Shown: one piece after another, positions 5,539 through 34,619 of the stretch
Layout: every line of letters starts with the position of its first letter
How positions within the stretch are numbered: the first letter of the stretch is position 1
From: Ciconia boyciana
Taxonomy: Eukaryota
Assembly (NCBI RefSeq): GCF_034638445.1
Contig: NC_132969.1
Span: 255,423-319,422, forward strand
DNA length: 64,000 bases
Direction of reading: 5' to 3'
Translations under genes and position numbers: made by a program
The notes under the pieces: model-generated
What the model was told of the DNA's origin: nothing
Seen by the model: the letters and a program-made list of their open reading frames with translations, nothing else
The model's database searches: none

Positions 5539-5615
5539 GTGACGGGCGGGGCATGGGCGTGGTGTGGGTGGGGCGTTGGATGGGCGTGGCGTGGCTGACT
5601 CCTCCCCCTCGTTAG

Positions 5616-5703: not shown

Positions 5704-5776
5704 GTGAGCCCGTGCCGTGGGGCGGCCGTGGGGCGGCCGTGGGGTGGAGCTTGACTTTGTCCCGCCCTTCTTCCAG

Positions 5777-5939
5777 GCGTCTCTTGACCAACCGACGCAG
5801 ACGGTGATGATGCATCGGACGGAACCGACGGCGCAGCAGAACCTGGCGCTCCAATTGGCCGAGAAGTTGGGCAACTTGGTGGAGAACAACGAGCGGGTCT
5901 TCGACCACAAACAAGGCTCCTACGGCGGCTACTTCCGAG
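5777..5939 (+). CDS. EIF3C: EIF3C coding exon
   Basis: Acceptor cttccag (5771-5776). [54 protein letters not shown](D). Donor GT 5940-5941. Confidence 0.88.
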
Positions 5940-6025
5940 GTCTGCCCCACATCCTGCCCCACATCCTGCCCCACACCCTGCCCCACACCCTGCCCACCCA
6001 CCTCACCCATCTCTCCGCCCCACAG

Positions 6026-6111
6026 ATCAAAAAGACGGCTACCGGAAAGGAGACGGCGGCTACTTACGCCGCGGTGGTTACCGTCAACAAGAGCGCGGTT
6101 CCAACTACTGA
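6026..6111 (+). CDS. EIF3C: EIF3C terminal coding exon with TGA stop
   Basis: Acceptor ccccacag (to 6025). (D)[27 protein letters not shown] with stop 6109-6111. AATAAA follows 44 nt downstream. Confidence 0.88.
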
Positions 6112-6154
6112 GCCCCACGGCGGCCCCTGCCCCATGGCGCTCCGCCCCACATAT

Positions 6155-6160
6155 AATAAA
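6155..6160 (+). terminator. EIF3C: Polyadenylation signal AATAAA of EIF3C
   Basis: Hexamer in atataataaagcaact, 44 nt after the stop codon. Confidence 0.7.
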
Positions 6161-6293
6161 GCAACTTGGCACCGATTCGCCTCGTTATGGGGAGCGTTGA
6201 CCCGTGTGGGGCCAGGTTAATGAGTGACGACGAAGCGGGTGGGGGGCGGGGGGAAGGAGGATTTAACGCCTGCCCCACGGCGAGCGCCGACCT

Positions 6294-6476
6294 TTGAGCG
6301 TCAGCCATGGGGCAGGAGCGGGGGGGGGTCGCCGTGGGCGCCCCACGGCGAAAGGAACCCCGTTAAATTTTGGGGAGGGGACGGCGTTTCGGTTGAAGAG
6401 TGGGCGGGAGCTGGTGCGGGCGCTGCTGGTGCTGCGGCTCTGCGCCTTCCCCCGCCTGGTCCGACACGCCGGCACG
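6294..6476 (+). CDS. PRODH2: PRODH2 (hydroxyproline dehydrogenase) first recognisable coding exon; start codon unresolved
   Basis: LNFGEGTAFRLKSGRELVRALLVLRLCAFPRLVRHAGTV aligns with human PRODH2 LSFDGGAFHLKGTGELTRALLVLRLCAWPPLVTHG. Donor GTGAGA at 6477. There is no in-frame ATG upstream; the nearby ATGs at 6220 and 6307 are out of frame. The exon lies only ~130 bp after the EIF3C poly(A) signal. Confidence 0.65.
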
Positions 6477-10599: not shown

Positions 10600-12800
10600 A
10601 GGGAGGGGGGGGCACTGGGGACACTGGGTGCGCTGGGGGCCGTGCTTGCGCTGGGGGCACTGGCGGCACTGGTGGCACTGCTGACACTGGTGGCCGGGCT
10701 CGCACTGGGGGCACTGGTGGCCGTGCTCGCACTGGGGGCACTGCTGACACTGGGTGCGCTGGTGGCACTGGTGGCCGTGGTCACGCTGGGGGCACTGGTG
10801 GCCGTGCGCGCGCTGGGGGCACTACTGACACTGGTGGCCGTGCTCTCACTGGGAGCACTCGTGGCCCTGGTGGCCATGCTCACGCTGGTGGCACCGAGTG
10901 CACTGGTGGCACTGGTGGCCGTGCTCACACTGGCGCCACTGGCGGCCATGGTCACGCTGGGGGCACTGCTGACACTGGTGGTCATGCTCACGCTGGCAGT
11001 ACTGGCGGTCATGCTCCCACTGGTGGCACGGCTGACACTGGCAGCCATGCTCACACTGGTGACACTGGTGTTCGTGCTCTCACTGGGGGCACTGGCAGCA
11101 CTGGCTGCACTGGTGGCCATGCTCCCACTGGTGGCACTGGCGGTCATGCTCACGCTGGTGACACTGGTGGTCGTGCTCGCATGGGGGGCACTGGTGGCCA
11201 CGCTCACACTGGGGGCACTGGTGGTCATGCTCTCACTGGGGGCACTGCTGACACTGGTGGTCGTGCTCTCACTGGGTGCACTGGTGGTCGTGCTCACACT
11301 GGTGACAGCGGGTGCACTGGTGGCCATGCTCATGCTGGGGACACTGGTGAGACTGGTGTCCACGCTCACACTGGGGGCACTGGTGACACCGGTGGCCATG
11401 CTTGCACTGGCAACACTGGTGGGCACGGTAGTGCTGGCAGCCATGGTGCCACTGGTGGTCATGGTGGCACTGGTGGTCATGGTGGCGCTGGCGCTGCAGG
11501 CGATGGTGACACTGGTGCTCATGGGGGCACTCATGGCGCTGGTGGCCATGCTCACACCGGTGGTCATGGTGTCACTGCCGGTGATGGTGGCACTGGCGGT
11601 ACTGCTGGTCACAGTGACGCTGGCTTTCGCGGTGACACTGGCAGTTCATGGTGACACCGGTGGCTTTGGTGACGCTGGCCGTCATGGTGACACCGGTGGT
11701 CATGCTGACAGCAGCAGCGATGGTGACACCGGTGCTCTTGGTGACACCGGCAGTCATGTGGCACCAGTGGTTGTGGTGTCACTGCCAGTCAAAGTGACAC
11801 CAGTGGTCACGGTGACGCTGGCCGTCGTGGTGACGCTGGCTGTCGTGGTGACACTGGCGGTCATGGTGACATGGTCACGGTGACGCTGCTGGTCGTCATG
11901 ACACCGGCAGTCGTGGTGGCACCGGTGGTCATGGTGGCACTGCCAGGGATGGTGGCACTGGTGGTCACAGTGACGCTGGCCGTCATGGGGGCACTGGTGG
12001 TCATGCTGACACCAGCAGTCATGGTGATGCTTGTCGTCACAGTGACATAGTCATGGTAACAGTGACGGTCGTGATGACACCGGCACTCGTGGTGGCACCG
12101 GTGGTCATGGTGGCACTGCCAGCGATGGTGACACCGGCCATCACGGTGACACTGGCTGTCATGCTGACACTGGCACTCGTGGTGACACTGGTGGTCATGC
12201 TGACACCAGCAGTCACGGAGATGCTGGTGGTCGTGGAGACATGGTCACGATGACGCTGGTGGTACTGGTGACACCGGCAGTTGTGGTGGCACCCATGGTC
12301 ATGGTGTCACTGCCAGCGATGGTGACACCGGTGGTCATGGTGACGCTGGCGGTCCTGGTGACACCGGCCGTCATGCTGAAACCATCAGTCATGGTGATGC
12401 TGGCGCCCATGGTGACATAGTCATGGTGACAGTGGTGGTCATGGTGGCACCGGTGGTCATGGTGTCACTGCCAGCAATGGTGACGCTGGCCGTCACACTG
12501 ATGCTGGTGGTCACGGTGACACCGGCCATCATGCTGACAGCAGCAGTCATGGTGACGCTGGCAGTCACAGTGACATAGTCACGGTGACACTCATGGTGGC
12601 ACTGGTGGTCATGGTGGCACTGCCAGCGATGGTGACACCGGCCATCATGCTGACACCAGCAGTCATGGTGACACTGGCGGTCACGGTGACATAGTCACGG
12701 TGACGGCAGCGGCCATGGTGGCACTGGTGGTCATGGTGTCACTGCCAGCGATGGTGATACTGGTGGTCATGGTGGTGCCGGCAGTCACGGTGACATAGTC
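10600..12800. repeat. 12-bp-periodic minisatellite family (GGTGGTCATGGTGAC / GGCACTGGTGGC variants), MAZ intron 1
   Basis: Hundreds of tandem 12-nt units. All six frames lack stop codons, which produces the giant spurious ORFs in the track (e.g. 10098..11612, 10120..11883). Confidence 0.85.
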
Positions 12801-13689: not shown

Positions 13690-16650
13690 CGGGGCGCGGG
13701 GGCGGGGAGCGGGGCAGGGGGCACGGCGGGGCTGGGGGTGACGGGGGAGACGGTGGGCACGGTGGCGCGGGTGGTTGTGGTGATGCTGGGCGTCATGGGG
13801 ACGATAGGAGTCATGGTGATGCTGGCGGTCATGGGGACGATGGAGGTCGTGGTGACGCTGGGCGTCATGGGGACGATGGGCGTCATGGGGACAATGGGGG
13901 TCATGGTGATGCTGGCGGTCGTGGTGGGACTGGTGGTCACGGTGGCACTGGGCATCATGGGGACAACGGTGGTCATGGTGGTGCAGGCAGTCATGGTGAT
14001 GCTGGTGGTCGTGGTGACGCTGGGCGTCATGGGGACGATGGTGGTCATGGTGATGCTGGGCGTCATGGTGACACTGCAGGTCATGGTGGCACGGGCGGTC
14101 GTGGTGATGCTGGGTGTCGTGGTGACACTGCAGGTCATGGTGATGCTCGGTGTCATGGTGACAATGGCGGTCATGGTGACGTTGGGCATCATGGGGATGC
14201 TGGAGATCATGGTGATGCTGGCGGTCATGGTGGCACTGGCAGGCACGGTGACGATGGTCATGGTGACGCTGGGCATCATGGTGACAATGGAGGTCATGGT
14301 GGCATTGGTGGTCATGGTGATGCTGGGTGCCATTGTGACTGGCTGTCATGGTGACACTGGTGGCCATAGTGGTGCAGGGCGTCATGGTGACAATGCAGGT
14401 CATGGCGGCACTGGTGGTCGTGGTGACGCTGGGTGTCATGGTGACAGTGGCGGTCATGGTGATGCTGGGCGTCATGGTGGCGCTGGTGACCATAGCGACG
14501 CTGGAGATCACGGTGATGGTGGTGGTCACGGTGGCGCTGGTGGTCATGGTGGGACTGGCGCTCATGGTGACGCTGGGGGTCACAATGACACTAGGGGTCA
14601 TGATGATGCTGGAGGTCATGGGGACAATGGTGGTCGTGGTGACAATGCTGGTCACGGTGGTGTTGGGGGTCACGGTGACGCTGGCGGTCATGGGGACAGC
14701 GTTGGTCATGGTGACAATGGCAGTCATGACACTGGGTGTCGTGGTGACAACGGAGATCATGGAGATGCTGGTGGTCACGGCGGGACTGGCGGTCATGGTG
14801 ACAATGGGGGTCACAGTGACGCTGCTGGTCGCGATGATACTGGCAGTTATGGTGGCGCTGGTGGTCGTGGTGGCCATGGCAGTCACGGTGATGCTGGTGG
14901 TCATGGTGGCGCTGGGGGCCATAGTGACGCTGGAGGTCACGGTGACAATGGTGGTCGTGGTGACAACGGTGGTCATGGTGACAGTGGTGGTCACAGCGGT
15001 GCTGGTGGTCATGGTGACAATGGTGGTCATGGTGGCACTGGGCATCATGGTGGTGCTGGTGGCCGTGGTGGTGCTGGTGGTCACGGTGGCGCTGGTGGTC
15101 ATGATCATGCTGGTGGTCATGGTGGTGCTGGCGGTCATGGAGGCACTTGAGGTCACTGTTGGTCACGGTGGCGCTGGTAGCCATGGTGATACCGGCGGTC
15201 AAGGTGATGCTGGACACCATGATGATACCGGTGGTCATGGTGACACTGGTGGTCATGGTGACGGTGGGGGTCATGGAGATGCCGGTGGTCGTGGTGGCAC
15301 TTGAGGTCATTGGTTGTCACAGCGATGGTGGTGGTCATGATGACGTTGGCTGTCACGGTGACAATGGTGGTCACAGTGGGGCTGGTGGTCATGGTGACGA
15401 TGGTGGTCACGGTGGCACGGGGGGTCATGCTGACGGTGAGGGCCATGGAGATGCTGGGGGTCATGGTGGCACTGCTGGTCATGGTGCCAATGGTGGTCAC
15501 GGTGGCACCAGTGGTCATGGTGGCACTGGGGGCCATAGTGACGCTGGAGGTCACGGAGGTGCAGGGGGTCATGGTGGCACTGGTGGTCATGGTGGGACTG
15601 GTGGTCATGGTGACCCTGGCAACCTTGGTGGCCCTGCTGGCCGTGGTGAAGCTGGTGGCCATGGTGGCCGTGGTGATGCTGATGGCCCTGGTGATGCTGG
15701 TGGCCATGGTGGCCATATATGCTGGTGGCCATGATGGCCCTGATGACACCGGTGGTCATTGTGGCCATGGTGACACTGGTGGCCGTGGTGATGCTGGTGG
15801 CCCTGGTGATGCTGGGAGCCCTGGTGATGCTGGTGACGCTGGTGGCCATGGTGACACTGGTAGCCATGGTGATGCTGGTGGCCATGATGGCCATGGTGAT
15901 GCTGGGGGCCCTGGTGATGCTGGTGACACTGGTGGCTGTGGTGATGCTGGGGGCCATGGTGATGCTGCTGATGCTGGTGGCCATGGTGTGACTGGTGGCC
16001 ATGGTGATGCTGGTGGTCCTGGTGGCCGTGGTGACGCTGGTGGCCATGGTGATGCTGGTGAGGCTGGTGGCCATGGTGGGACTGGTGGCCATGGTGATGC
16101 TGGTGGTCCTGGTGGCCGTGGTGACGCTGGTGGCCATGGTGATGCTGGTGGCCATGGCGGGACTGGTGGCCATGGTGACGCTGGTGGCCATAGTGGCCGT
16201 GGTGACGCTGGTGGTTCTGGTGATGCTGGTGACGCTGGTGGTCACAGTGGCTCTGGTGGCCATGGTGATACTGGTGGCCACAGTGACACTGGTGGCCATG
16301 GTGATGCTGGTGGCCCTGGTGGCCCTGGTGGCCATGGTGATGCTGAGGGCCCTGGTGATGCTGGTGGCCATGGTGGCTGTGGTGACGCTGGGGGTCATTG
16401 TGGCCGTGGTGACGCTGGGGGCCCTGGTGACGCTGGGGGCCTTGGTGATGCTGGTGGCCATGGTGACGCTGGGGGCCCTGGTGATGCTGGTGACGCTGGG
16501 GGCCCTGGTGATGCTGGTGGCCATGGTGACGCTGGGGGCCCTGGTGGCCGTGGTGATGCTGGAGGTCCTGGTGATGCTGGTGACGCTGGTGGCCGTGGCG
16601 GGACTGGTGGCCACGGTGATGCTGGTGGCCGTGGTGGCCCTGCCCTCCCC
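13690..16650. repeat. 12-bp-periodic minisatellite family (GGTGGTCATGGTGATGCT variants), MAZ intron 2
   Basis: Same family as 10600-12800. Stop-free in all frames. Confidence 0.85.
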
Positions 16651-16726
16651 GGTGTCCCCCCCCCCGCCCCCGCCGCCGCCGGCCGTGCCGTCACCGCGCT
16701 TTGGCCTCTCCCCCCTCCCCGCCCAG

Positions 16727-16790
16727 GCCCGACCACCTCAACAGCCACGTGCGGCAGGTCCACTCCACGGAGCGCCCCTTCAAGTGCGAG
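16727..16790 (+). CDS. MAZ: MAZ zinc-finger coding exon
   Basis: Acceptor ccgcccag. (R)PDHLNSHVRQVHSTERPFKCE is identical to human. Donor GTAGGT at 16791. Confidence 0.9.
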
Positions 16791-16871
16791 GTAGGTCCCC
16801 CTCCCGGCCCCCTCCCCTCCCACCTCTCCCCCGCCCCACGGCGCCCGCCCCACGGCGCCTTCCCGCCCTAG

Positions 16872-17043
16872 ACCTGCGAGGCCGCCTTCGCCACCAAGGA
16901 CCGGCTGCGGGCGCACACGGTGCGGCACGAGGAGAAGGTGCCGTGCCACGTCTGCGGGAAGATGCTGAGCGCCGCCTACATCTCCGACCACATGAAGGTC
17001 CACAGCCAGGGCCCCAACCACGTCTGCGAGCTCTGCAACAAAG
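16872..17043 (+). CDS. MAZ: MAZ zinc-finger coding exon
   Basis: Acceptor ccgccctag. TCEAAFATKDRLRAHTVRHEEKVPCHVCGKMLSAAYISDHMKVHSQGPNHVCELCNK(G) matches human. Donor GTAGGG at 17044. Confidence 0.9.
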
Positions 17044-17049
17044 GTAGGG

Positions 17050-19560
17050 GCGCGCCGTGGGGCGGGGTGTGGGGCGGGGTGTGGGGCGCGCCGTGGGGCG
17101 GGGTGTGGGGCGGGCCGTGGGGTGTGGGGTTTGGGGAGCGATGGTTATGGGGAGGGGTTGGGTTTGGCCGGCTGTTGTTTGCGTAGGGGTTGCGGGGCGG
17201 TTGTGGGGTGCGCCGTGGGGCGGGGGTGGGGGTGGGGTTTGGGGGTGGCGGTTCAGGGGAGGGGTTGGTTTGCCCGGCTGTTGTTGTGTAGGGATTGGGG
17301 TGCTGTGGGGCGGCTGTGGGGCAGGTTGTAGGGCAGCTGTGGGGCAGGGCATGGGGCAGGCCGTGGGGCATGGGGTTTGGGGGGTGGCGGTTCAGGGGAG
17401 GGGTTGGTTTGCCCGGCTGTTGTTCTGTAGGGATTGGGGTGCTGTGGGGCAGCTGTGGGGTGGCCGTGGGGCAGGCTGTGGGGCAGTTGTGGGGCAGGCC
17501 ATGGGGCAGGCCGTGGGGTGTGGGGTTTGGGGGTGTCAGTTTGGGGGAAGGGTTGGTTGTCCTGGCTCTGTGGGGCAGAGAGGCACCGTCCCACGTAGGG
17601 CTCATGTGGGGCGCTGATCTGTGGGGCACAGGCTGTATGGGGCGCTGATCTGTGGGGCACAGGCTCTATGGGGTGCTGATCTATGGGGCAGAGGCTGCGT
17701 GGGGCACAGGGTCGCTGTGCCAGGTAGGGCTGCTGTTGCTGTGGGGCACCAGCCCCATGGGGTACAGGCTCTATGGGACACTGGCTCTATGGGGCACTGT
17801 CCCACAGCTCCCGGGCTCTATGGGGCACTACCCCATGGCTCCCAGGCTCTATGGGGCGCTGCCCCACAGTTCCTAGGCTCTATAGGGCACGACCCCACAG
17901 CTCCCTTCTGCTATGGGACACTGCCCCATAGCTCATGGGCTCTATGGGGCACTATTGCCATGGCTCCCAGGCTCTATGGGGCACCGCCCCCCAGCTCCCA
18001 GGCTCTATGGGGCACCGCCCCACGGCTCCCAGGCTCTATGGGGCACCGCCCCGCAGCTCCCAGGCTCTATGGGGCACCACCCCCCACCTCCCAGGCTCTA
18101 TGGGGCACTGTCCCATGGCTCCCAGGCTCTATGGGGCACCACCCCCCAGCTCCCAGGCTCTATGGGGCACCGCCCCGCAGCTCCCAGGCTCTATGGGGCA
18201 CCGCCCCCCACCTCCCTGCAGCTATGGGGCACCGCCCCCCAGCTCCCAGGCTCTATGGGGCGCTGCCCCCCACCTCCCAGTCCCTCTAGCTCCCCCCCCA
18301 CCACCCCGCAGCCCCCGCCCCCAAGCGCCGTGGGTCTGACGCCGCTTCGTCCCCAGGCTTCACCACGGCGGCGTACCTGCGGGTGCACGCGGTGAAGGAC
18401 CACGGGGTGGCGGCCCCCCCGCCCCCCGACGCCTCCTCTGCAAACTCTGCGGGGTTCACTGCAAGACCCCCGCCCAGCTCAGCGGCCACCTCCAGACCCA
18501 CGGCGCAGCCCCCCCCGCCGAGGGGCCCGCTCCCCAGGGGGCTCCGCCGCTCCGCTGACGCGCCCACAGGCAAGGCCCGGCGGGGGGACGGGGGACGGGG
18601 GGGCTGGGGAGGGGGATGGAGGGGGGACGGGGGGAGGGAGGGGGGGGAGGGACTTGGGGGGCAGCCCCATAGAGCCTGGGAGTTCTGCCACGTAGAGCCT
18701 GGGAGTTCTGCCCCGTGGATCGCGGGAGTTCTGCCCCATAGAGCCTGGGAATCCTGCCCCATGGATCATGGGAGTTCTGCCCCATGGATCGTGGGAGTTC
18801 TGCCCCATAGATCACAGGATTTCTGCCCCATAGAGCCTGGGAGTTCTGCCCCATAGAGCCTGGGAGTCCTGCCCTGTAGAGCTTGGGAGTTCTGCCCCAT
18901 AGATCACAGGAGTTGTGTCCCATAGAGCCTGAGAGTTCTGCCCCATAGATCATGGGAGTTCTGCCCCATAGAGCCTAGGAGTTCTGCTCCATAGATCATG
19001 GGAGTTCTGCCCCATGGATCGCAGTTCTGCCCCACAGAGCCGGGGAGCCCCGCCCCATAGATCATGGGAGTTCTGCCCCATAGAGCCTGGGAACTCTGCC
19101 CCATAGATCGCAGGAGTTCTGTCCCATAGATTATGGGAGTTCTACCCTGTAGATAGAACCTGGGAGCTCTGCCCCATAGCGTGCACTGGTGGGTGCTTGG
19201 GGGGCAGCCCCATAGAGCCTGGGAGCCCTGCCCCATAGATCGTGGGAGTTCTGCCCCATAGCATGGGAATGGGGGTGTTTGGGGGGCAGCCCCATAGAGC
19301 CTGGGAGTCCTGCCCCATAGATCACAGGAGTTCTGCCCCAGAGAGCCTGGGATTTCTGCCCCGTAGTGCGGGGATGGGGATGCTTGGGGGGCAGCTCCAT
19401 AGAGCCAGGGATGGGGGGCAGCCCCATAGATCCTGGGAGCCCTGCCCCATAGCGTGGGGCGGGAGGGGACAGCACCCGGGGGGGAGGGGGGGGCTCATCT
19501 TGCCCCAGAGCCGGGGGATGGGGGTCACTTGGGGGGCAGCCCCATAGATCCGGGCAGTCC
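17050..19560. repeat. Minisatellite arrays in MAZ intron 4 (units ~24-30 bp: ctatggggcaccgccccacagctcccaggct; ccatagatcatgggagttctgcc)
   Basis: Read directly. Several sub-arrays carry the recurring motifs ccccatag / ctatgggg. Confidence 0.8.
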
Positions 19561-19623
19561 GGCCTCCCTGTGGGGCAGAGCTGGGGGGCGGAGGGGCCGT
19601 GGGGTGACGCCGTCTCCCCACAG

Positions 19624-19739
19624 GTGGGGGCGAGTCCTGCCCCATGGCGGCCCCCGGCCCCCCCGCCCCGGCCGTGGCCGTGCTCCCCATGGAGGGGGCC
19701 CCCGTCGTCAGCCAGGCCCTGCCCAGCCAGCCCTGGTGA
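19624..19739 (+). CDS. MAZ: MAZ terminal coding exon with TGA stop
   Basis: Acceptor tctccccacag (to 19623). (G)GESCPMAAPGPPAPAVAVLPMEGAPVVSQALPSQPW* matches human ...VPVSSQPLPSQPW*. Stop at 19737-19739. Confidence 0.88.
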
Positions 19740-20145
19740 GGGGGCGGCGGGGGGGCCCGCCCTGCCCCACAGATGTGGGGGGCCCCACAGCGAACCGGAG
19801 CCCCACGGCGAGGGAGAGCCCCACGGCGAAGCGGAGCCCCACGGCGAGGGAGAGCCCCACGGATACGGGCGGCCCCATGGATATGGGGAGCCCCACGGCG
19901 CGGCGGAGCCCCGCGGATATGGGGAGCCCCACGGCGCTGTGGGGCGGCCCCTGCCCCACGGCGCTGGGGGGCGGGGGGGGACACCGCCCCGCCCCGCGGG
20001 CGTGTCCTCCCCGGGCCCCGCCCCCTTTTCGTGTTCGTGGCCCCGCCCCTCGGCGCGCGCGGGGGGGGCGGGGCGGGATTTTTGTACCGCGCGCCAAGGG
20101 GGGAGGGGGAGGGGGAGGGGAGGGGAGCGACGCCCAATAAACCCT

Positions 20146-20151
20146 CGGCGC
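20146..20151 (+). terminator. MAZ: Candidate MAZ polyadenylation signal AATAAA
   Basis: cgcccaataaaccc, ~400 nt after the MAZ stop. Confidence 0.4.
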
Positions 20152-20164
20152 CTCCGTTGGCTCC

Positions 20165-20700
20165 GCCCACTGCGCATGCGCGGACCGGCGGGGGGGGTGG
20201 GGGTGTGTGTGTACGCATGCGCCAAGGGCACATGGCGGGGTGGAGAGCGGGCGCGCATGCGCATGGGGCGAGTCGCGACGGTGAAGGGCGGGGACGCAGT
20301 GGCGCATGCGCGGCGCAGCGGGGTGGGGGCGCGCGTGCGCGGTGAGGACACTCGGGTGCGGAGTCGCGCATGCGCGGGGGGGCACGGCGCGCTGAGGGGG
20401 GGCGGAACGAGAGGTAGCGCCCACGAGGGCGGGGCTCCGCCGGGCCACGCCCTTTCCCCGACCACGCCCCCCCCGGAAGATTACAAGCGCGGAGGAGGCG
20501 AGGCTTGCCGCGGGGCACCGCCCATCTTAGGCCACGCCCACCACGTGACTGCCGCCTGATTGGCCGCGGAGAGGAGGGGGCGGGGCTGCGGCCACCTCGG
20601 CCGGCACGGCGAGGGTGGGGAGTGAGACGAGGGGGCGGGGCAGCGCTGTGACGTCAGAGCCCCGCCCACGAGCCGCTGGGCGGCCGGTACCCGCCCCCCC
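20165..20700. promoter_or_regulatory. Orphan CpG island with at least 4 NRF1 palindromes GCGCATGCGC (20172, 20256, 20306, 20370), an inverted CCAAT (ctgattggcc, 20549), a CRE TGACGTCA (20649-20656) and GC boxes
   Basis: Motifs read directly. The island lies between the convergent 3' ends of MAZ (19739) and INO80E (20882). Confidence 0.5.
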
Positions 20701-20881
20701 CCCCGGGGGTTTCTCCCCCTCCCCAATTCCGGGTTTTTCCCCCCAAAACGCGGGGATCCCCCCCCCCCGGGTTTTTCCCCCCAACTTGTGGCGTTTTCAC
20801 CAAACTCGGAGGGTTTCCCCCAAAATTGTATTTCCCCCCAGGTTCTGGGGTTCCCCCAGGGTCGGGGGTCGGGGTCAGGGG

Positions 20882-21065
20882 TCACTCGGGGATGTCGATC
20901 ACCAGCTCGTCGTCCCCGTCCAGGGGTCGTCGCCGCTCCCCTCCCCGCGTCGCTCAGCATCCGCCGGGGACGGTGCTGGGGACGGGGGGCCCTTGGGGGG
21001 AGGGGCGGGGGAGGGGCCCTCCCGGGCCACGCCCCGAGGGGAAGGGCAAAGGGGGTGGGGGGCAG
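20882..21065 (-). CDS. INO80E: INO80E terminal coding region; the reading frame is broken twice by apparent 1-bp gaps
   Basis: On the minus strand after acceptor ccctcccccag, three successive frames read ..PRRMLSDAG / GEGSGDD / LDGDDELVIDIPE*. Human is [27 protein letters not shown]. Stop TGA is the reverse complement of 20882-20884. Adding one G to the gggg run and one C to the cccc run restores a single frame. Confidence 0.55.
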
Positions 21066-21099
21066 CTGGGGGAGGGGGTGGGCGTGAGTGACCCACGGT

Positions 21100-21550
21100 G
21101 CCCCCAAGCGCCCCCACAGCCCCCCAAGTGCCTCCTAAGTGCCCCACTGTGACCCCTAAGTGCCCCATTCTGACCCCCAAGTGCCCTCCAGGCCCCGAGT
21201 GTGTGTCCCCCCCAAGTACCCCATTGGGACCCCAAGTCCCCCGTGACCCCCAAGTGCCCCTCCCAGCCCCCAAGTGCCCCATTCTGACCCCCAAGTCCCC
21301 TCCCAGCCCCCAAGTGCCCTACTGTGACCCCAAATTCCCCCTGTGCCCCCTGGGACCCCAAGTGCCCCCCAGCCCCTCAAGGCTCCCCCAGCCCCCAAGT
21401 GCCCCCTGGGACCCCAAGTCCCCCCCAAGTCCCCTCCCAGCCTCCCAAGTGCCCCACTGTGCCCCCAAATTCCCCCTGTGCCCCCTGGGACCCCAAGTCC
21501 CCCCGCAGTGCCCCATTCTGACCCCCAGCCCCCAAGTGCCCCCCCCCCTC
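21100..21550. repeat. Minisatellite ccccaagtgcccc(attctga/ctgtga) array (INO80E intron)
   Basis: Read directly. Confidence 0.8.
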
Positions 21551-21558
21551 CCCTCTAC

Positions 21559-21810
21559 CTGCAGGCGCCGGGAGCCCTTGGGGCGGCGGGCGGGGCCGGG
21601 GCGGGGCCGCTCGGGCGGGGCGGCCCCTCGGGGGCCAAATACTCGGTGGGGAAGGGGCTGTAGGGGGAGGCCATCTGGGGGGGAGGGGTCGGTGAGGGCC
21701 CGCCCCTCCCCCATGGGGCGAGGGCGGCGTGGGGGAGGGGCGACTCACCATGTAGGGGGCAGGCGGCGGGGGAAGCCGGGCGGGGGAGGGGAGGGCGGGG
21801 GCTGCGCTTC
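21559..21810 (-). CDS. INO80E: INO80E coding exon (Pro/Ser-rich middle region)
   Basis: Minus strand: acceptor ccccccacag, then (R)[71 protein letters not shown]... matching human KRKRSPPLGG...SSRYPPFPSDYLALQLPEPSPL. Donor GTAGAG. Confidence 0.7.
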
Positions 21811-21895
21811 CTGTGGGGGGGGAGGGAGAAAGAGTGAAGGCCGGCGGCCATCTTGAGGGCTGGCGGCGGCCATCTTAGCCCCCTCCCCCCTTTAC

Positions 21896-21971
21896 CTCTT
21901 GGGTGGGGGAGGGTCCGCCCCCTTCGCCCCCTCCCCCTCGCTGTTGTCGGACGAGGCGGTGGCTTCCGAAT
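21896..21971 (-). CDS. INO80E: INO80E coding exon
   Basis: Minus strand: acceptor tcccccag, then (D)[24 protein letters not shown](R) matching human [27 protein letters not shown]. Donor GTAAAG. Confidence 0.8.
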
Positions 21972-22053
21972 CTGGGGGAGGGGGATGTGTGTGTGGGGGA
22001 GGGGTGTCCGTCCCCCTCCCCTCCATCTCTCCGTCCCCTCCCCGCCCCGGTAC

Positions 22054-22106
22054 CTGACGAATCCTCGTCCACGTTCTCGTACTGCAGCAACCGGTCCAGG
22101 AGGAAG
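22054..22106 (-). CDS. INO80E: INO80E coding exon
   Basis: Minus strand: acceptor cccccag, then (S)[17 protein letters not shown], identical to human. Donor GTACCG. Confidence 0.88.
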
Positions 22107-22181
22107 CTGGGGGGAGGGGAGGGCGTGAGAGGGGGGGAGGGGAGGGGTGGGGGGGGGGGGTGGGGGGTGGGGGAGGGGCAC

Positions 22182-22252
22182 CTCTTGTCCCGCGAGACCT
22201 TCAGCAGCTTGCGCTGGGCCCGGCGCAGCTCCTCCTGGAAGCACTCCTGCTC
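22182..22252 (-). CDS. INO80E: INO80E coding exon
   Basis: Minus strand: acceptor ccccccag, then [23 protein letters not shown] matching human [23 protein letters not shown]. Donor GTGCCC. Confidence 0.85.
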
Positions 22253-22329: not shown

Positions 22330-23030
22330 CACACACACACACCCCCTCCCCTCCCCCACCCTGCCAGGCCCCTCGGGTTTCCCCCTCCCCCATCACCGGG
22401 TCCCCTCCCCTGGTGCGTTATGGGGACAGGGATTGACCCCTCCCCCCCCCCACTGCAATGCATTGTGGGTACAGACCCCCTCAGCCCCGCCCCTTCCGCA
22501 ATGCACTGTGGGTACAAACCCCCTCAGCCCCACCCCCGCAATGCATTGTGGGTACAGACCACCCTCAGCCCCGCCCCTTCTGCAATGCACTGTGGGTACA
22601 GACCCCACTCAGCCCCGCCCTCGCCATAACCCCACCCCCTCCACAATGCACTGTGGGTACAAACCCCTCAGCCCCGCCCCCAATGCACTGTGGGTACAGA
22701 CCCCCTCAGCCCCGCCCCTTCCGCAATGCACTGTGGGTACAGACCCCCCTCAGCCCCGCCCCTTCCGCAATGCACTGTGGGTACAGACCCTGCTCAGCCC
22801 CGCCCCTCGCCATAATCCCGCCCCCGCAATACACTGTGGGTACAAACCCCTCAGCCCCGCCCCCCAATGCACTGTGGGTACAGACCCCCCCTCAGCCCCG
22901 CCCCCTTCCGCAATGCACTGTGGGTACAGACCCCCCCTCAGCCCCGCCCCTTCCGCAATGCACTGTGGGTACAAACCCCCCTCAGCCCCACCCCCGCAAT
23001 GCACTGTGGGTACAAACCCCCTCAGCCCCC
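22330..23030. repeat. Minisatellite, ~57-bp unit caatgcactgtgggtacagaccccctcagccccgcccc(ttccg) (INO80E intron 1)
   Basis: ~12 tandem copies read directly. Confidence 0.85.
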
Positions 23031-23120
23031 ACCCCTCATCTCTCCCCCCGCCGTGCCCCCCCCCGCCGTGTCCCCGCCCCCGGCCGCGTCCCCGCCCCCG
23101 CCGTGCCCCGCCCTCCTCAC

Positions 23121-23204
23121 GTAGAGCAGGAGCTTGAGGCGCCGCTTGAGCGCCCGGTACCGCCGCTTGTAGCCGCCGCCATCACCCTCGGCCGCCCCGT
23201 TCAT
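23121..23204 (-). CDS. INO80E: INO80E first coding exon (MNGAAEGDGGGYKRRYRALKRRLKLLLY)
   Basis: Minus-strand ATG is the reverse complement of 23202-23204. Human is [27 protein letters not shown]. Donor GTGAG is the reverse complement of 23116-23120. Confidence 0.88.
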
Positions 23205-23480
23205 CCCCCGCCGCCGCCGCCGCCACGATCCCGGCAGCCCCGCGCCGCCGCCGCTCCCCATTGGCCGCCTCCTCCCCGCGCCGCCTCCCCATTGGCTCCC
23301 CACCCCCCGTTGCGCGTCCCGCCCCCTCCCCTCCCCATTGGCCGCCTCCCCGCCGCGCCGCGCGTCCCGCCTCCCCCCAAACCACTCCTCATTGGCTGCA
23401 GGCGCGGCGGGCGGGGAGCGCTATTGGCTGGCGCCGCGCGAGGCTCCGCCCCCCGCGGTGCGCGCGGACGGAAGGCGGCG
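23205..23480. promoter_or_regulatory. INO80E / HIRIP3 bidirectional promoter: five inverted CCAAT (ATTGG) boxes (23249, 23291, 23338, 23389, 23422) in a CpG-rich 277-bp spacer between divergent ATGs
   Basis: The repeated motif cccattggc and the head-to-head ATGs at 23204 (-) and 23481 (+) match the shared promoter arrangement of the human pair. Confidence 0.7.
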
Positions 23481-23512
23481 ATGGCGGCGCGGGGCGAGCG
23501 GAGCGGCCGAGG
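23481..23512 (+). CDS. HIRIP3: HIRIP3 putative first coding exon (MAARGERSGR..)
   Basis: ATG in gcggcgATGg. Human begins MAREKEMQEF. Donor GTAAAG at 23513. The assignment rests on position and weak similarity. Confidence 0.45.
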
Positions 23513-23646
23513 GTAAAGGGGGGCGCGGGGGTTGTGGGATACTGGGGGACCGGGGAGGGGCGGGGCGGGGAGGCGGTGACCCGCCCCGCCGCCGCCGCCG
23601 GAAGGGGCGGAGCCTGCGGGGGGAGGAGGCCCCGCCTCCCCGGAAG

Positions 23647-23948
23647 TGGGGCGGGAAAGGGTGGGAGGGAGGGGGAGAGGAAGAGGAAGAGGAAGGCGGG
23701 GAAAATGGGGAAAGCGGGGAGAAACGGGAGCGGGAAGGGGAAAAGGGCGGGGAAACGGGGGAGGGGCAAAGGGGAGGGGGAGGAGGAGGAAGAGGAAGGG
23801 GAGGAGGAGGAAGAGGAAGGGGAGGAGGAGGAAGAGGTGCCTCAGCAAAATGGGGTGAAAATGGCCAAAAACAGGAGCGGGCACCCAAAGGCCCTGAAAA
23901 TTGGGGGGGAAAGGTGCAAAATTGAGAGCGAGGAAGAGGAGGAAGAGA

Positions 23949-26026: not shown

Positions 26027-26191
26027 GTTTCGGGGCGCCGGGGGGGGGGCCCCCCCCCCGTGCGGCGCCTGAAGCGCTACATCCGGGCGTGCGGGGCGCG
26101 CCCCAACTACAAGAAGCTTTTGGGGGGCTGCCGCAGCCTGCGGGAGAGAGTTGGGGTGCTGCGGGGGAGCTGCAGGCCCTCGGCCTCACCG
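26027..26191 (+). CDS. HIRIP3: HIRIP3 coding exon (conserved C-terminal domain, part 1); it contains an apparent 1-bp gap
   Basis: Acceptor cccccccccag (AG 26025-26026). VSGRRGGGPPPVRRLKRYIRACGARPNYKKLLGGCRSLRERVGVLRG matches human AVMRLKRYIRACGAHRNYKKLLGSCCSHKERLSILRAE. The frame then shifts to ..GELQALGLT(G) (human AELEALGMKG). Donor G|GTACTG near 26192. Confidence 0.7.
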
Positions 26192-27579: not shown

Positions 27580-27670
27580 GCCCCCTCCCTGGCTCGCTGC
27601 CGCCGCCTGAAACGCCGCCGCGAGGAAGCGGCCGAGCTGGCGGCGCTGGACGTTGCCAACATCATCCCCG
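27580..27670 (+). CDS. HIRIP3: HIRIP3 coding exon
   Basis: Acceptor ccccatccccag. APSLARCRRLKRRREEAAELAALDVANIIP(G) matches human TPSLGKCRALKEQREEAAEVASLDVANIISG. Donor GTAACA at 27671. Confidence 0.85.
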
Positions 27671-27752
27671 GTAACACCCCCTCCCCACCGTACCCCTAAA
27701 CTCCCCCTCAATTTTTCGGGGCACCCCTTAAACCCCCTTTTTATTCCCTCAG

Positions 27753-27877
27753 GCCGAGCCCGCAGACGCAACGGCTGGAGCCCCCAAATCCCCCGCGAGG
27801 AAACGGGGGCCCCCCTTCCTCCCGTCGACTGGTCGCGCCTTCGGGGCGTCATCAGCTCCGACGGCGAGAGCGATTAA
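27753..27877 (+). CDS. HIRIP3: HIRIP3 terminal coding exon with TAA stop
   Basis: Acceptor ttattccctcag. (G)[40 protein letters not shown] matches human GRPRRRTAWNPLGEAAPPGEL...PPDWSHMRGIISSDGESN*. Stop at 27875-27877, followed by an A15 tract and ATTAAA. Confidence 0.88.
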
Positions 27878-28169
27878 CCCCCCCCAAAAAAAAAAAAAAA
27901 TTTAAAAATTAAACTATATTCATTCCAAAGAGATTTTTTGGGGGTGTTTTCACGTTCTTTTGGGGGTGCTGTAAAAATTTGGGGGGGGTCAATATTTACG
28001 CTGACGGAGGAAAAAACCCGGGGGGCGTTTTGGGGGGGGTCTTCTCCTTCCAGCTGGAAAAGATCTCGCCCCGTCCGGAGAATTTGTTCTTCTAATTTCT
28101 TGTGCCGTTTCATATCCGATAAAACTTTATCCAGGCGAGCTTCCCGCTTCTGCCCGCGCGTCGGGGGGC
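27874..28169 (-). CDS. PAGR1: PAGR1 terminal coding exon; as written the ORF stops at 27874-27876 and overlaps the HIRIP3 stop, but the conserved C-terminus is read in another frame with its stop at 27989-27991
   Basis: Minus strand: acceptor aaatccggcag, then (G)[45 protein letters not shown].. matching human [44 protein letters not shown]. The +2 frame reads ..[10 protein letters not shown] (human ..LFPRQRKY*). The as-written frame runs through the poly-T tract (..[10 protein letters not shown]). Confidence 0.7.
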
Positions 28170-28290
28170 CTGCCGGATTTATCGGGGGGCTAGCGAATAG
28201 CGGGGTCCCCCCTTTTATTTAATTTAAAAAAAAAAAAAAAAAGAAAAAGAAAAGAAAAGGATGGAGGCGGAGGGATGGGGGCGCGCTTAC

Positions 28291-28379: not shown

Positions 28380-28560
28380 GGGGAAAAAGCAAATAAAAAT
28401 AAAAATAAATTCTGTAATAAAAGCAAAATCTTCTAATAAAAGCAAAATCCTATAATAAAAACCAAATCTTCTAATAAAAACAAAATCTTCTAATAAAAAC
28501 AAAATCTTCTAATAAAACCAAAATCCTATAATAAAACCAAAATCCTATAATAAAACCAAA
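28380..28560. repeat. AT-rich ~20-bp tandem repeat (aaaatcttctaataaaaacaaa)
   Basis: Read directly; at the 3' edge of PAGR1 intron 1 (minus orientation). Confidence 0.85.
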
Positions 28561-30125
28561 ATCTTCTAATAACAATAATATCGTACATTATCATGTTATT
28601 GTTTGTATTATTATATGCATTACATATGTATAATAATATTAAAATATAATATGATAATATAGTAAATAATATTTAATATTACATCATATTACATGATATA
28701 ATATTAAACTATATTATACAATAATACTCTATATTATATAATCACATTTTATATATTATATAATAATATGTAACATAATATTATATTATATATATTTAAA
28801 TATATAACATCATAATATAATGTATTATATATATAATATGTATTTTATAATATATAACATATAATAATACATTAGTATATATTAACACCTAATAACATAT
28901 ATTAATATGTAATATATATTTTTATATATAATACATCATATATGTATATTTAATATATTATATATATACTACATAACAAAACAATAATGTTATCATAGTA
29001 TAATACTATTTTTATGTATTATAAATTAGTAATAGTATCGTAATTATTAATCGTATCATATTATTATGATATTATGATAATCATACGGTGTTATTAATTG
29101 TATGACACAGTATAATACTATTTTTAATGTATTATAAATTATTAATAGTATCGTAATTATTAATTGTATCATATTATTATAATATTATGATAATCATAGG
29201 GTGTTATTAATCATGACATAGTATAATAGTAATTTTTATACATTATAAATTATTAATAGTATCGTAATTATTAATTGTATCATATTATTATTATATTATG
29301 ATAATCATAGGGTGTTATTAATCGTATGACAGAGTATAATACTATTTTTTATATATTATAAATTATTAATAGTATCGTAATTATTAATCATATCATATTA
29401 TTATAATATGATAATCATAGGGTGTTATTAATCGTATGACACAGTACAATACTATTTTGTATGTATTATAAATTATTAATAGTATTGTAATTATTAATCA
29501 TATCATATTATGATATTATAATCACACGGAGTTATTAATCGTATGACATAATATAATACTATTTTTTATGTATTATAAATTATTAATAGTATTGTAATTA
29601 TTAATTGTATCATATTATTATGCTATTATGATAATCATAGGGTGTTATTAATCGTATGTCATAGTATAATACTACATTTTAGGTATTATAGATTATTAAT
29701 AGTATTGTAATTATTAATCGTATCATATTATTATGATATTATGATAATCACATGCTGTTATTAATCGTATGACATAGTATAATACTATTTTGTATGTATT
29801 ATAAATTATTAATAGTATTGTAATTATTAATCGTATCATATTATTATGCTATTATGATAATCATACCGTGTTATTAATCGTATGTCATAGTATGATACTA
29901 CATTTTATGTATTATAAATTATTAATAGTATTGTAATTATTAATCGTATCATATTATTATGCTATTATGATAATCATACGGTGTTATTAATTGTATGTCA
30001 TAGTATGATACTACATTTTATGTATTATAAATAATTAATAGTATCGTAATTATTAATCGTATCATATTATTATGATATTATAATCACACGGTCTTATTAA
30101 TCGTATGACATCATACAACACCACG
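28560..30125. repeat. AT-rich satellite, ~118-bp unit (..tattataaattattaatagtatcgtaattattaatcgtatcatattattatgatattatgataatcatagggtgttattaatcgtatgacacagtataatactatttt..), ~13 copies inside PAGR1 intron 1
   Basis: Read directly; estimated ~80% A+T inside a window that is otherwise >65% G+C. Confidence 0.9.
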
Positions 30126-30599: not shown

Positions 30600-32450
30600 G
30601 GGAGGGGTCAGGCGGCCCCCAAAAAAGCTGCGATTCACCCCAAAAGGGGATGGGAGGAACCGGCGGGCCAGGCCTGAGGTGATCCCGGTGCCCGTAGGGC
30701 CGCCATTTTGAGGCCTGAGGTGGTCCCATCACCCCTGGGGCCGCCATTTTGAGCCCTGAGGTGATCCTGGGGCCGCCATTTTGCGCCCTGAGGTGATCCC
30801 ATCACCCCTGGGGCCACCATGTTGAGCCCTGAGGTGGTCCCGTCACCCCTGGGGCCACCATTTGGAGCCCTGAGGTAGTCCTGGGGACGCCATTTTGCAC
30901 CCTGAGGTGATCCCATCACCCCTGGGGCCACCATGTTGAGGCCTGAGGTGGTCCCGTCACCCCTGGGGCCACCATTTGGAGCCCTGAGGTAGTCCTGGGG
31001 ACGCCATTTTGCGCCCTGAGGTGATCCCATCACCCCTGGGGCCACCATGTTGAGGCCTGAGGTGGTCCCGTCACCCCTGGGGCCACCATTTGGAGCCCTG
31101 AGGTAGTCCTGGGGACGCCATTTTGCGCCCTGAGGTGATCCCGTCACCCCTGGGGCCACCATGTTAAGCCCTGAGGTGGTCCCGTCACCCCTGGGGCCGC
31201 CATTTTGAGCCCTGAGGTGATCCTGGGGCCGCCATTTTGCGCCCTGAGGTGATCCCATCACCCCTGGGGCCACCATGTTGAGCCCTGAGGTGGTCCCGTC
31301 ACCCCTGGGGCCACCATTTGTAGTCCTGGGGACGCCATTTTGAGGCGTGAGGTGATCCCATCACCCCTGGGGCCACCATGTTGAGGCCTGAGGTGGTCCC
31401 GTCACCCCTGGGGCCACCATTTGGAGCCCTGAGGTAGTCCTGGGGACGCCATTTTGCGCCCTGAGGTGATCCCGTCACCCCTGGGGCCACCATGTTAAGC
31501 CCTGAGGTGGTCCCGTCACCCCTGGGGCCACCATTTGGAGCCCTGAGGTAGTCCTGGGGACGCCATTTTGCGCCCTGAGGTGATCCCGTCACCCCTGGGG
31601 CCACCATGTTAAGCCCTGAGGTGGTCCCGTCACCCCTGGGGCCGCCATTTGGAGCCCTGAGGTAGTCCTGGGGACGCCATTTTGAGGCGTGAGGTGATCC
31701 CATCACCCCTGGGGCCACCATTTGGAGCCCTGAGGTGATCCTGGGGCCGCCATTTTGCGCCCTGAGGTGATCCCATCACCCCTGGGGCCGCCATGTTGAG
31801 CCCTGAGGTGGTCCCGTCACCCCTGGGGCCGCCATTTGGAGCCCTGAGGTGGTCCCGTCACCCCTGGGGCCGCCATTTGGAGCCCTGAGGTGGTCCCATC
31901 ACTCCTGGGGCCGCCATTTTGACCCCTGAGGTGGTCCTGGGACGGCTATTTTGAGGCCTGAGGTGGTCCCATCACCCCTGGGGCCACCATGTCAAGCCCT
32001 GAGGTGGCCCTGGGGCCATCATTTTGGGCCCTGAGGCAATCCCATCACTCCTGGGGCCACCATTTAGAGCCCTGAGGTAACTTCACACCCCTGGGGCCAC
32101 CATTTTGAGCTCTGAGGTGGTCCCATTACCTCTGGGGCCAGCATGTTAAGCCCTGAGGTAGTCCTGGGGCCACCATTTTGAGCCCTGAGGTGATCCCATC
32201 ACCCCTGGGGCCACCATTTTGAGCCTCGAGGCCATCCCATCACCTCAGAGGCCGCCATGTCGAAGCCTGAGGTGATCCCGTCCCCCCTGGCACCGCCATG
32301 TCGAGCCCTGAGGTAACCTCACACCCCTGTGGCCGCCATTTTGAACCCCGAGGCGACCCTCACACCCGCAGGGCCGCCATCTTGAGGCCTGAGGTAACTC
32401 CAGCCCCCTCACACCCCTGCAGCCGCCATGGCGAGCCCTGAGGCGACCCC
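30600..32450. repeat. Minisatellite, ~41-42 bp unit (gccctgaggtggtcccgtcacccctggggccaccatgttgag) with a ~120-bp higher-order structure, immediately upstream of the PAGR1 ATG
   Basis: ~45 tandem copies. Each unit carries a Kozak-like gccaccatg on the plus strand. Confidence 0.85.
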
Positions 32451-32589: not shown

Positions 32590-32800
32590 GTTACTACGCA
32601 TGCGCGGGGAGGGACCCGTCACTGAGGGGGGGCGCGCATGCGCAGAGCGACCCGCGCACCGCCTCGGCGCTGTGCGCATGCGCGGCTCCGCTCCGCGCCC
32701 CGGCGGGTTCTCCCAGCCCCGCCCCTTGCTTCGCGGTGGGCGTGGCATGTGCGCGGCCCCGCCTCCCCCCCCTCAGTCGGCGCATGCGCAGGAGGCGGAG
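32590..32800. promoter_or_regulatory. CpG island with four NRF1 palindromes (GCGCATGCGC at ~32597, 32638, 32674, 32783); candidate PAGR1 distal promoter or an independent TSS
   Basis: Motifs read directly; the island is ~2 kb upstream of the PAGR1 ATG, beyond the 41-bp array. Confidence 0.45.
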
Positions 32801-33314: not shown

Positions 33315-33850
<536 letters not shown>

Positions 33851-33962
33851 ATGCGCTGCTTCAAAGCGCGGTGGATATGGGGGGGCGCTACCCCTCGCGC
33901 ATGCGCAGCTTTAAGGCTGCCGTCCCGCCCCCCCCGCCCCGTACTCCGCGCTGATTGGCTCA

Positions 33963-34118
<156 letters not shown>

Positions 34119-34619
34119 TCAGGTTACCGGAGGGAGGGGGGTAGGAGGCCACGCCCACCGCTGCCCGTGGCGGGATTTGGCCACGGGAGCCATGGCCCCG
34201 CCCCCAAATCCCCCATGGCCCCGCCCCCCGCCCCTCCCATCGCCCCCGCCCCCCCCAAACCGCCCCAACCCCCTTTCCCCCCACGGGCCCCGAAACCCCC
34301 ATGTCCCCCCAAAATCCCCAGGAGCCCCCCAAGACCCCCCTGGGCCCCCAAAACACCCATGGGGCCCCCAACCCCTCATGGGCCCCCAAACCCCCATGGC
34401 CCCCCAAAACCCTCATGAGCCCCCCAAGACCCCCATGGGCCCCAAAACCCCTATGACCCCTCACCCCCCATGGACCCCAAGACCCCCATGACCCCTCCGA
34501 GACCCCCATGGGCCCCCAAGTCCCCCTGGGCCCCCCAACCCCTCAGGGCCCCAAAACCCCCCCCGTCCCCCCTCACCCTCCAGCCGTCGCTCATCCAGGT
34601 AGGCGGGGTCAGCCATTCC

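Follow-up and report, generated by a model that had tools for sequence, protein, structure and literature searches.

A promoter-like CpG island between the convergent 3′ ends of MAZ and INO80E in Ciconia boyciana

Introduction

The window analyzed here is a 64,000-nt stretch of Ciconia boyciana contig NC_132969.1, a GC-rich (63% GC) bird locus that is dense in genes and tandem repeats. The feature under study is a segment of 536 bp (window positions 20165-20700), situated where two genes, MAZ on the + strand and INO80E on the - strand, meet tail to tail; the MAZ poly(A) signal AATAAA (20136-20141) and the INO80E stop codon (20882-20884), between which it lies, are separated by 741 bp. An earlier note on this DNA had described the segment as a promoter-like CpG island between convergent 3′ ends, and this description stands. 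The motif content of the island and its conservation among birds suggest a promoter that may have lost its gene.

The MAZ-INO80E junction

MAZ was identified through named homologues, the best of which is that of Grus americana (83%). Its zinc-finger exons lie at 16620-17050 and an alternative exon at 18290-18555, both on the + strand, followed by the last coding exon (…GGGESCPMAAP…VVSQALPSQPW*; + strand, 19622-19740, stop at 19738-19740), which was placed by tblastn at 100%. The 3′ untranslated region (UTR) extends over 19741-20160 on the same strand and includes species-specific 18/36-bp tandem repeats (19764-19937) and the sole poly(A) signal of MAZ, which is kept in Grus, Passer, Cuculus and Eudromia. 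MAZ's own 3′ UTR also holds, 10 nt 5′ of the AATAAA, a (G5A)n tract (20099-20127), which among + strand G-quadruplex motifs is the main one in the MAZ-INO80E interval. (G5A)n is a classic binding and pause consensus of the MAZ protein itself.

INO80E starts (MNGAAEGDG…) near 23207, has exons in 21650-22250, and ends (…DGDDELVIDIPE*) at the stop codon given above in + strand coordinates. Its identity follows from Pfam (INO80E, 1.7e-23) and from named bird and reptile homologues, with the N-terminal part reaching 97% to Bubo (over 31% of the query) and 91% to Athene (over 47%). A short T/C-rich minisatellite of GGTTTTTCCCCCAAAATTGT-like units (20700-20860), which measures 0.16 kb in the window and up to 2.2 kb in other birds, is probably the INO80E 3′ UTR and termination zone. 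The + strand has no TTTATT, the INO80E-sense AATAAA, between the MAZ and INO80E stop codons, and the only candidate poly(A) signal of INO80E would be an AATACA variant (20827-20832, - strand). In alligator, the INO80E gene has an AATAAA 10 nt past its stop codon (GAGTGACCCCTGACCCCAATAAA, alligator locus 11750-11780); the window keeps GAGTGACCCCTGACCCC past the stop (20885-20865), but has GACCCC where alligator has AATAAA. The 3′ ends of bird INO80E genes seem to have moved into the T-rich satellite. In the last INO80E exon of the window, a G5 run at 20930-20960 (- strand) is one G shorter than in Grus (…GCGGGGGAGGGGAGCGGC…), and as a result MLSDAG and GSGDDPLDGDDELVIDIPE* fall in different frames; this is either a homopolymer assembly error or a genuine frameshift or altered splice.

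Composition and motif content of the island

The island has a GC content of 0.77 and a CpG observed/expected ratio (o/e) of 0.98, with a peak of 1.28 in 20200-20400, compared with an o/e of 0.45 for the whole window and of 0.06-0.5 in neighbouring introns. By the sequence definition used (at least 200 bp, GC at least 0.5, CpG o/e at least 0.6), its 536 bp are a CpG island, and the segment returned by the filter, 19901-20700, has a GC content of 0.78 and an o/e of 0.94. A high CpG o/e persists only where CpGs escape germline methylation (PMC3787257; PMC8286816).

The four NRF1 sites, the CCAAT box and the cAMP-response element (CRE) that the earlier note had listed are all present. Four copies of the NRF1 site GCGCATGCGC, at 20172, 20253, 20302 and 20366, match perfectly, and two more, at 20213 and 20331, deviate by a single base. 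Among 2000 dinucleotide-preserving shuffles of 20165-20700, perfect sites averaged 0.01 and no shuffle reached four. A motif density like that of shuffled local sequence, which the earlier note had named among the findings that would refute its proposal, is thus clearly not seen. The six palindromes form a homotypic array (Module A, 20172-20375) with a spacing of 29-49 bp. The 10-mers are 93% identical to one another, and the spacers agree at 0.53, exactly as they do when shuffled (0.53), which indicates that the NRF1 sites were retained while the spacers were randomised. For the same reason, a young minisatellite was ruled out as the origin of the array. Tandem Repeats Finder (TRF) returned no tandem array in 20165-20700, and the head-to-tail similar units of a minisatellite are not found in the island.

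An inverted GC box block, GGCTCCGCCC (20159-20168), precedes the array, 23 nt past the start of the AATAAA. The distance of about 20 nt from the MAZ AATAAA that had been noted earlier is correct for the start of the island; the first NRF1 site lies farther away, 30 nt past the end of the signal. To the right of the array, 20426-20479 holds a GC box, GGGCGGGGCTCCGCC, two CCACGCCC boxes (20445, 20462) and an ETS core, CCGGAAG (20473-20479), and 20532-20585 holds a third CCACGCCC (20532), an E-box, CACGTG (20542-20547), the CCAAT box, and a GC box, GGGGCGGGG (20577-20585). The CCAAT box is read on the opposite strand as RRCCAATSR, the NF-Y-type context (ATTGG at 20559-20563 within CTGATTGGCC / CTGATTGGCCGCGG), and was matched in 69 of the 2000 shuffles. 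Beyond the sites listed in the earlier note, the island therefore contains the ETS core, the E-box, three CCACGCCC boxes, a number reached in 2 of the 2000 shuffles, and nine GGGCGG boxes, reached in 10.

The last element, termed here the Module B core (20632-20668), consists of a GC box, GGGGCGGGG (20632-20640), an 8-nt gap, the full CRE TGACGTCA (20649-20656), and a second box of GC/CACCC type, GCCCCGCCCA (20659-20668). A full CRE was present in 4 of the 2000 local shuffles, and the whole window contains 3, compared with 0.19 expected. On the MAZ-sense (+) strand, the GC skew ranges from +0.27 to +0.42 over 20100-20400 and from -0.01 to +0.12 in Module B. G-quadruplex motifs are few within the island, and the CTCF core motif CCASYAGRKGGCRSY has no match across the window when scanned as a consensus pattern only, without a weight matrix. 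The asymmetry between splice-donor (U1) and poly(A) motifs gives no direction, as neither motif is present in this GC-rich DNA. What the analysis shows is thus the motif cluster and its excess over shuffled sequence, the retention of CpGs and, as described below, the absence of coding potential and the pattern of conservation; occupancy by factors, an unmethylated state, any initiation of transcription and its direction, and the evolutionary origin of the island are inferred.

Searches for a hidden gene

The earlier note had suggested that the island might drive a small gene of its own. This can be dismissed for a protein-coding gene, as Pfam gave no match for any of the 13 open reading frames (ORFs) crossing 19134-21149, and tblastn of the island ORFs against six bird loci found nothing beyond the nucleotide-conserved flank of the MAZ poly(A) signal. 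Likewise, no protein-coding gene is called in the interval in the Grus, Athene, Bubo, Passer, Eudromia and Cuculus assemblies, which makes the island an orphan by annotation. A structured RNA gene was also rejected: Rfam gave no match at the gathering score in the window and, in the interval, only a chance-level one (E = 0.54, 20769-20820), and ARAGORN found no tRNA between MAZ and INO80E. The island is not a recent copy of another promoter in the window, since a sensitive blastn of 20101-20900 against the window returned only GC-driven matches of about 61%. Thus, the cluster of NRF1, Sp1, NF-Y and CRE sites that characterizes a gene promoter is present, while a downstream gene that it would serve is not found, whether as a Pfam match, a conserved ORF or a PRRT2 exon.

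Conservation among birds

The corresponding loci of Grus americana, Athene noctua, Bubo scandiacus, Passer domesticus, Eudromia elegans and Cuculus canorus were retrieved through their INO80E homologues. MAZ and INO80E are tail to tail in all six, which dates this gene order to before palaeognaths and neognaths diverged.

The tinamou Eudromia, a palaeognath, gives the most complete comparison. Its MAZ AATAAA is followed, after about 27 nt, by an identical 14-mer, CTGCGCATGCGCGG, and seven perfect and two near NRF1 sites, spaced by about 40 bp, lie between MAZ and INO80E. On the 3′ side of this array are a GGGGCGGGGCTCCGC…CCACGCCC block, two full CREs and a tandem repeat that continues up to the INO80E stop codon, and the GC skew is +0.23 to +0.38 over the equivalent 500 bp. 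The first NRF1 site is orthologous between the window and the tinamou, with conserved flanks. By TRF, the tinamou array shows a weak periodicity of 39 bp and 51 bp (74-82% matches).

In the other birds, the right-hand part of the island is better kept. The Module B core, which can be written GGGGCGGGG-N7-12-TGACGTCA-N2-GCC(A/C)CGCCC, has stayed intact in Passer, Athene and Bubo as in the window, and it is also found in Eudromia with its two CREs; it is degenerate in Cuculus (TGATGTCA), and in Grus the CRE is deleted with remnants of the core still recognisable. In the crane, the first NRF1 site is also visibly mutated (CTGCACGCGAAGG). Among the smaller landmarks, the 23-nt spacing from the AATAAA to GGCTCCGCCC is identical in the window, Grus and Passer (25 nt in Cuculus), the GGGGCGGGGCT…CCACGCCC block recurs in Eudromia and Grus, and TGATTGGCCGCGG recurs in Athene, where it adjoins the INO80E stop codon. 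The MAZ 3′ UTR and the remaining spacer are replaced across birds by lineage-specific repeats, and the T-rich satellite beside INO80E measures 0.9-2.2 kb in crane, owls and sparrow. In the loci compared, therefore, the pattern is that of a phylogenetic footprint, which appears strong for the CRE core and weaker and lineage-dependent for the NRF1 array. The architecture has been retained for roughly 100 million years, in full in the tinamou and in part in Neoaves, which argues for function rather than chance.

Gene order in alligator and turtle

The earlier note had also seen in the island a possible relic, the promoter of a gene that formerly lay between MAZ and INO80E. This picture proved wrong, because MAZ and INO80E are not neighbours in alligator or in turtle; going by these gene orders, their adjacency is an avian rearrangement. 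The alligator order is SEZ6L2, PAGR1, a HIRIP3-like gene, INO80E, an IL27-like gene, CLN3 and EIF3C. Past INO80E, the alligator DNA is CpG-poor (o/e 0.27-0.46) and has no NRF1 or CRE sites, and the turtle has there a C2-domain gene, which we take to be DOC2A from mammalian synteny, again with no NRF1 or CRE sites. Inheritance of the island from the INO80E side was rejected on these grounds: INO80E did not bring it along, since neither outgroup has an island or such motifs after this gene.

On the MAZ side, two alligator gene models of MAZ have a CD225 tail fused to them, with matches in PRRT2 from turtle, coelacanth, stork and mammals. It follows that MAZ and PRRT2 stand in tandem within 7.6 kb in alligator, as they do in mammals, human included. 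The ancestral downstream neighbour of MAZ is, on this comparison, PRRT2. A search for a PRRT2 still nearby, by tblastn with the alligator CD225 tail, found no match in the window or the bird loci. Loss of the gene from birds was ruled out by the stork PRRT2, so PRRT2 was separated from MAZ rather than lost.

Other genes in the region fit a simple history. In the window, some 4 kb separate EIF3C (+ strand, in 1-6300) from MAZ, which follows it on the same strand; in alligator, EIF3C (locus 19642-21761) is downstream of INO80E, the IL27-like gene and CLN3, and is co-oriented with INO80E. CLN3 and IL27 are both missing from the window. These gene orders would be explained by one inversion in birds that had its breakpoints between MAZ and PRRT2 and between INO80E and IL27, and it would have placed the MAZ-proximal part of the old MAZ-PRRT2 intergenic region against INO80E. 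An origin of the island from that intergenic region is plausible. No usable description of the PRRT2 promoter was found in the literature.

The PAGR1 promoter and related systems

A second NRF1 array in the window (32596-32789) shows what such a layout looks like when a gene is present. It starts 38 nt past the SEZ6L2 poly(A) signal, in the promoter region of PAGR1 (identified by Pfam PAXIP1_C), which is the next gene in tandem. In Grus, the poly(A) signal is likewise followed by 38 nt and CTGCGCATGCGCGG at the SEZ6L2/PAGR1 junction, and alligator has an NRF1 array at the PAGR1 start. An NRF1 array directly past an upstream poly(A) signal is therefore how a real tandem promoter looks in this compact genome. 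The island resembles the PAGR1 promoter in its homotypic NRF1 array with a spacing of about 30-50 bp, in CTGCGCATGCGCGG, and in its start 35-38 nt past a poly(A) signal. It differs in having no gene behind it, whereas PAGR1 lies downstream of its own array and the two are conserved together into alligator, and the two arrays share no real DNA homology beyond the motifs.

About half of vertebrate CpG islands are orphans, and these take part in regulating transcription, in some cases as unannotated promoters or enhancers (PMC8286816, citing Illingworth 2010). The orphan islands described there (Illingworth et al. 2010, in PMC8286816) are, like the present one, intergenic, away from annotated coding starts, high in GC and CpG o/e, dense in Sp1 and NRF1 motifs and evolutionarily conserved. 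Unlike those islands, the MAZ/INO80E island sits between convergent 3′ ends 740 bp apart, with no room for a transcription unit of its own. By position and conservation the island is one more member of this known class, although the class is defined experimentally, by initiation, H3K4me3 and an unmethylated state, whereas the island is assigned from sequence, position and conservation.

Another class with which it can be compared is that of terminal GC skew, which Ginno et al. 2013 reported at some 2000 human genes, with enrichment where the neighbouring gene lies within 2 kb, and linked to R-loops and partial protection from methylation; the effect was found chiefly at tandem gene pairs and less at convergent ones (PMC3787257). 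The island shares with these regions (PMC3787257) a co-oriented positive skew that begins where the transcript ends, a neighbour no farther than 2 kb away and the retention of CpGs at a 3′ end, but that class is defined by skew and not by factor palindromes. In the island only the left half, Module A, is skewed, whereas the CRE core is not. A third comparison is with pause-type terminators made of MAZ (G5AG5) sites, which were reportedly described by Ashfield, Proudfoot and colleagues in the 1990s, for example in the human C2-factor B interval. In both cases, G-rich factor-binding elements by a poly(A) site would guard a close neighbour, and the (G5A)n tract adjoins the MAZ AATAAA; here, however, the tract is upstream of the poly(A) signal, and what lies downstream is an array of NRF1 sites. 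NRF1 sites are not known to act as a roadblock.

Interpretation and alternatives

The reading that we rate as most likely, although we would place it somewhat below an even chance, is that of an orphaned, still factor-bound CpG-island promoter that gives non-coding, antisense and probably bidirectional transcripts. It is preferred because the MAZ-side island is built like the PAGR1 promoter and has no gene behind it. With its first NRF1 site about 30 nt past the MAZ poly(A) signal, the island has the build of a promoter for a tandem gene downstream of MAZ, and the avian rearrangement would have orphaned it by setting the INO80E 3′ end where the body of that gene would be. What persists would be a selectively maintained, presumably unmethylated intergenic CpG island that could serve as a binding platform for NRF1 (20172-20375), Sp/KLF, ETS, USF/MYC-type E-box factors, NF-Y and CREB/ATF (20632-20668). 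Initiation would be TATA-less, dispersed and probably bidirectional, yielding short non-coding transcripts antisense to the INO80E 3′ end or to the MAZ 3′ UTR. As a probable side effect, the bound factors and the G-skewed DNA may hold the two convergent transcription units apart.

Several points weigh against an orphaned promoter. There is nothing for it to drive, as neither a conserved ORF nor a Pfam match nor a directional asymmetry is found, and interference is to be expected if a strong promoter fires into a convergent pair of housekeeping genes. Five of the seven birds (Grus, Athene, Bubo, Passer and Cuculus) lack the NRF1 array, which must therefore be dispensable in many lineages. Nor is the NRF1 motif alone proof of a promoter, since such sites also occur in a SEZ6L2 intron (33847, 33897). 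Finally, 19 segments of the window, several of them coding exons, pass the CpG-island-like filter; CpG richness by itself is therefore weak and non-diagnostic evidence here, and the weight rests on the motif cluster and its conservation.

The main alternative, a termination or insulation zone, appears rather unlikely, although it is not exclusive of the promoter reading. R-loops and/or a roadblock of NRF1 and Sp factors would stop RNA polymerase II before it meets INO80E transcription coming from the opposite side, 740 bp away, with the promoter-like motifs as the means and no transcript as a product. The rise of the MAZ-sense skew exactly over 20100-20400, with comparable values in Eudromia, speaks for such a zone, as do the NRF1 arrays that abut poly(A) signals at two independent junctions, those of MAZ and SEZ6L2, the MAZ-type (G5A)n tract just 5′ of the AATAAA, and the terminal skew and R-loops described at closely spaced genes by Ginno et al. 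(PMC3787257). A GC skew, however, needs neither perfect palindromic NRF1 sites nor a full CRE, Module B is unskewed and yet better conserved, G-quadruplex motifs in the island are few, five birds manage without the array, and the Ginno effect concerns mainly tandem pairs. We give a lower chance to a 3′ enhancer for MAZ, INO80E/HIRIP3 or another neighbour that has no transcription start site. An active or poised enhancer role has been reported for orphan CpG islands (PMC8286816), and the conserved GC box-CRE-GC box core could confer responsiveness to cAMP/ATF, but both neighbours have their promoters at a distance of only 2.5-10 kb, and these are CpG islands too. Moreover, the combination of NRF1, NF-Y, Sp1, ETS and CRE is, from established knowledge, the classic proximal-promoter set and not an enhancer set.

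That the island is a neutral by-product, a minisatellite unit holding GCGCATGCGC that expanded in GC-rich DNA prone to biased gene conversion and now decays without function, seems improbable. The weak periodicity of the Eudromia array, the abundance of tandem repeats in the region and the absence of the array from most of the birds would suit this explanation, which leaves it to account for near-identical 10-mers between spacers no better than shuffled ones, for a first site that is orthologous with conserved flanks in the tinamou, for a CRE core conserved in four further lineages, and for a CpG o/e above 1 in non-coding DNA, which is unexpected for methylated neutral sequence. Least probable of all is a distal alternative promoter, whose non-coding first exon would be spliced over INO80E into the HIRIP3-like gene (+ strand, about 23.4 kb) or into a gene outside the window. 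The island is indeed laid out as a + strand tandem promoter, and the next + strand gene is the HIRIP3-like one, where an alligator exon matches 26045-26164; the INO80E/HIRIP3 pair, however, has its own CpG island (23001-23850), no GGTRAG donor occurs within 1 kb to the right of the island, the variable satellite of 0.9-2.2 kb intervenes in other birds, and none of the six assemblies has an annotation that joins the two.

A more speculative proposal, to which we attach little probability, is that NRF1 arrays 30-40 nt past poly(A) signals in compact genes of avian microchromosomes are dual-purpose “terminator-promoter” modules. Once bound, the array would be a roadblock or R-loop zone that halts the polymerase arriving from upstream, and also the place where the next transcript starts. 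On this view, the MAZ/INO80E island would have lost the gene of its promoter half and been kept for its terminator/insulator half, which would explain why it persists between convergent genes in the tinamou and in the window species, and the spacing between the poly(A) signal and the array at SEZ6L2-PAGR1 is compatible with it.

If the island fires as an orphaned promoter, an unannotated transcript antisense to INO80E or MAZ would be produced, and the locus would be a clear case of a promoter outliving, by about 100 million years, a gene that a rearrangement removed. INO80E and MAZ are dosage-sensitive regulators of chromatin and transcription in the 16p11.2 syntenic block. If instead it is a barrier, it would link NRF1 arrays with termination where vertebrate chromatin is very compact. 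Specialists are unlikely to be greatly surprised that a gene-dense microchromosome region holds an orphan CpG island, and the practical value is modest, namely a conserved regulatory element that annotation pipelines ignore.

Other features of the window

Several other features lie to the right of INO80E. The HIRIP3-like gene (+ strand, ends at 27874) and the last PAGR1 coding ORF (- strand, 27877-28218) meet within a few bases (27611-27877), so that their 3′ UTRs must overlap. The HIRIP3-like protein is not recognised by Pfam, and its sole support is the alligator exon match at 26045-26164. An intron of PAGR1 contains a 1.6-kb, extremely AT-rich satellite (28450-30100, GC 0.18-0.29). Units of about 41 bp with the YY1-core-like GCCGCCAT(T/C)TTG are repeated in tandem over 30690-32430, between the region of the PAGR1 start codon and the NRF1 array of PAGR1, and account for 16 of the 26 ATGGCGGC/GCCGCCAT cores in the window. 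ARAGORN predicted a tRNA-Ser(TGA) of 92 nt at 60149-60240 (- strand) in GC-rich, repeat-like DNA; the call is probably spurious because Rfam has no tRNA match there at the gathering score.

Two further sites recall the island itself. In a SEZ6L2 intron near the 3′ end of the gene, eight copies of a 32-bp repeat with GCCGCTTTAAGAAG (33587-33822) lie beside two perfect NRF1 sites (33847-33906), and CCAAT and CRE matches follow at 33953-34121, in or at the edge of the exon that encodes the SEZ6L2 transmembrane segment; the region 33587-33906 may be a second, intragenic orphan island. A CpG island of 1.3 kb (62201-63500) carries four perfect NRF1 sites (62370, 62952, 63145 and 63284) and a full CRE at 62783, and is probably the 5′ region of SEZ6L2.

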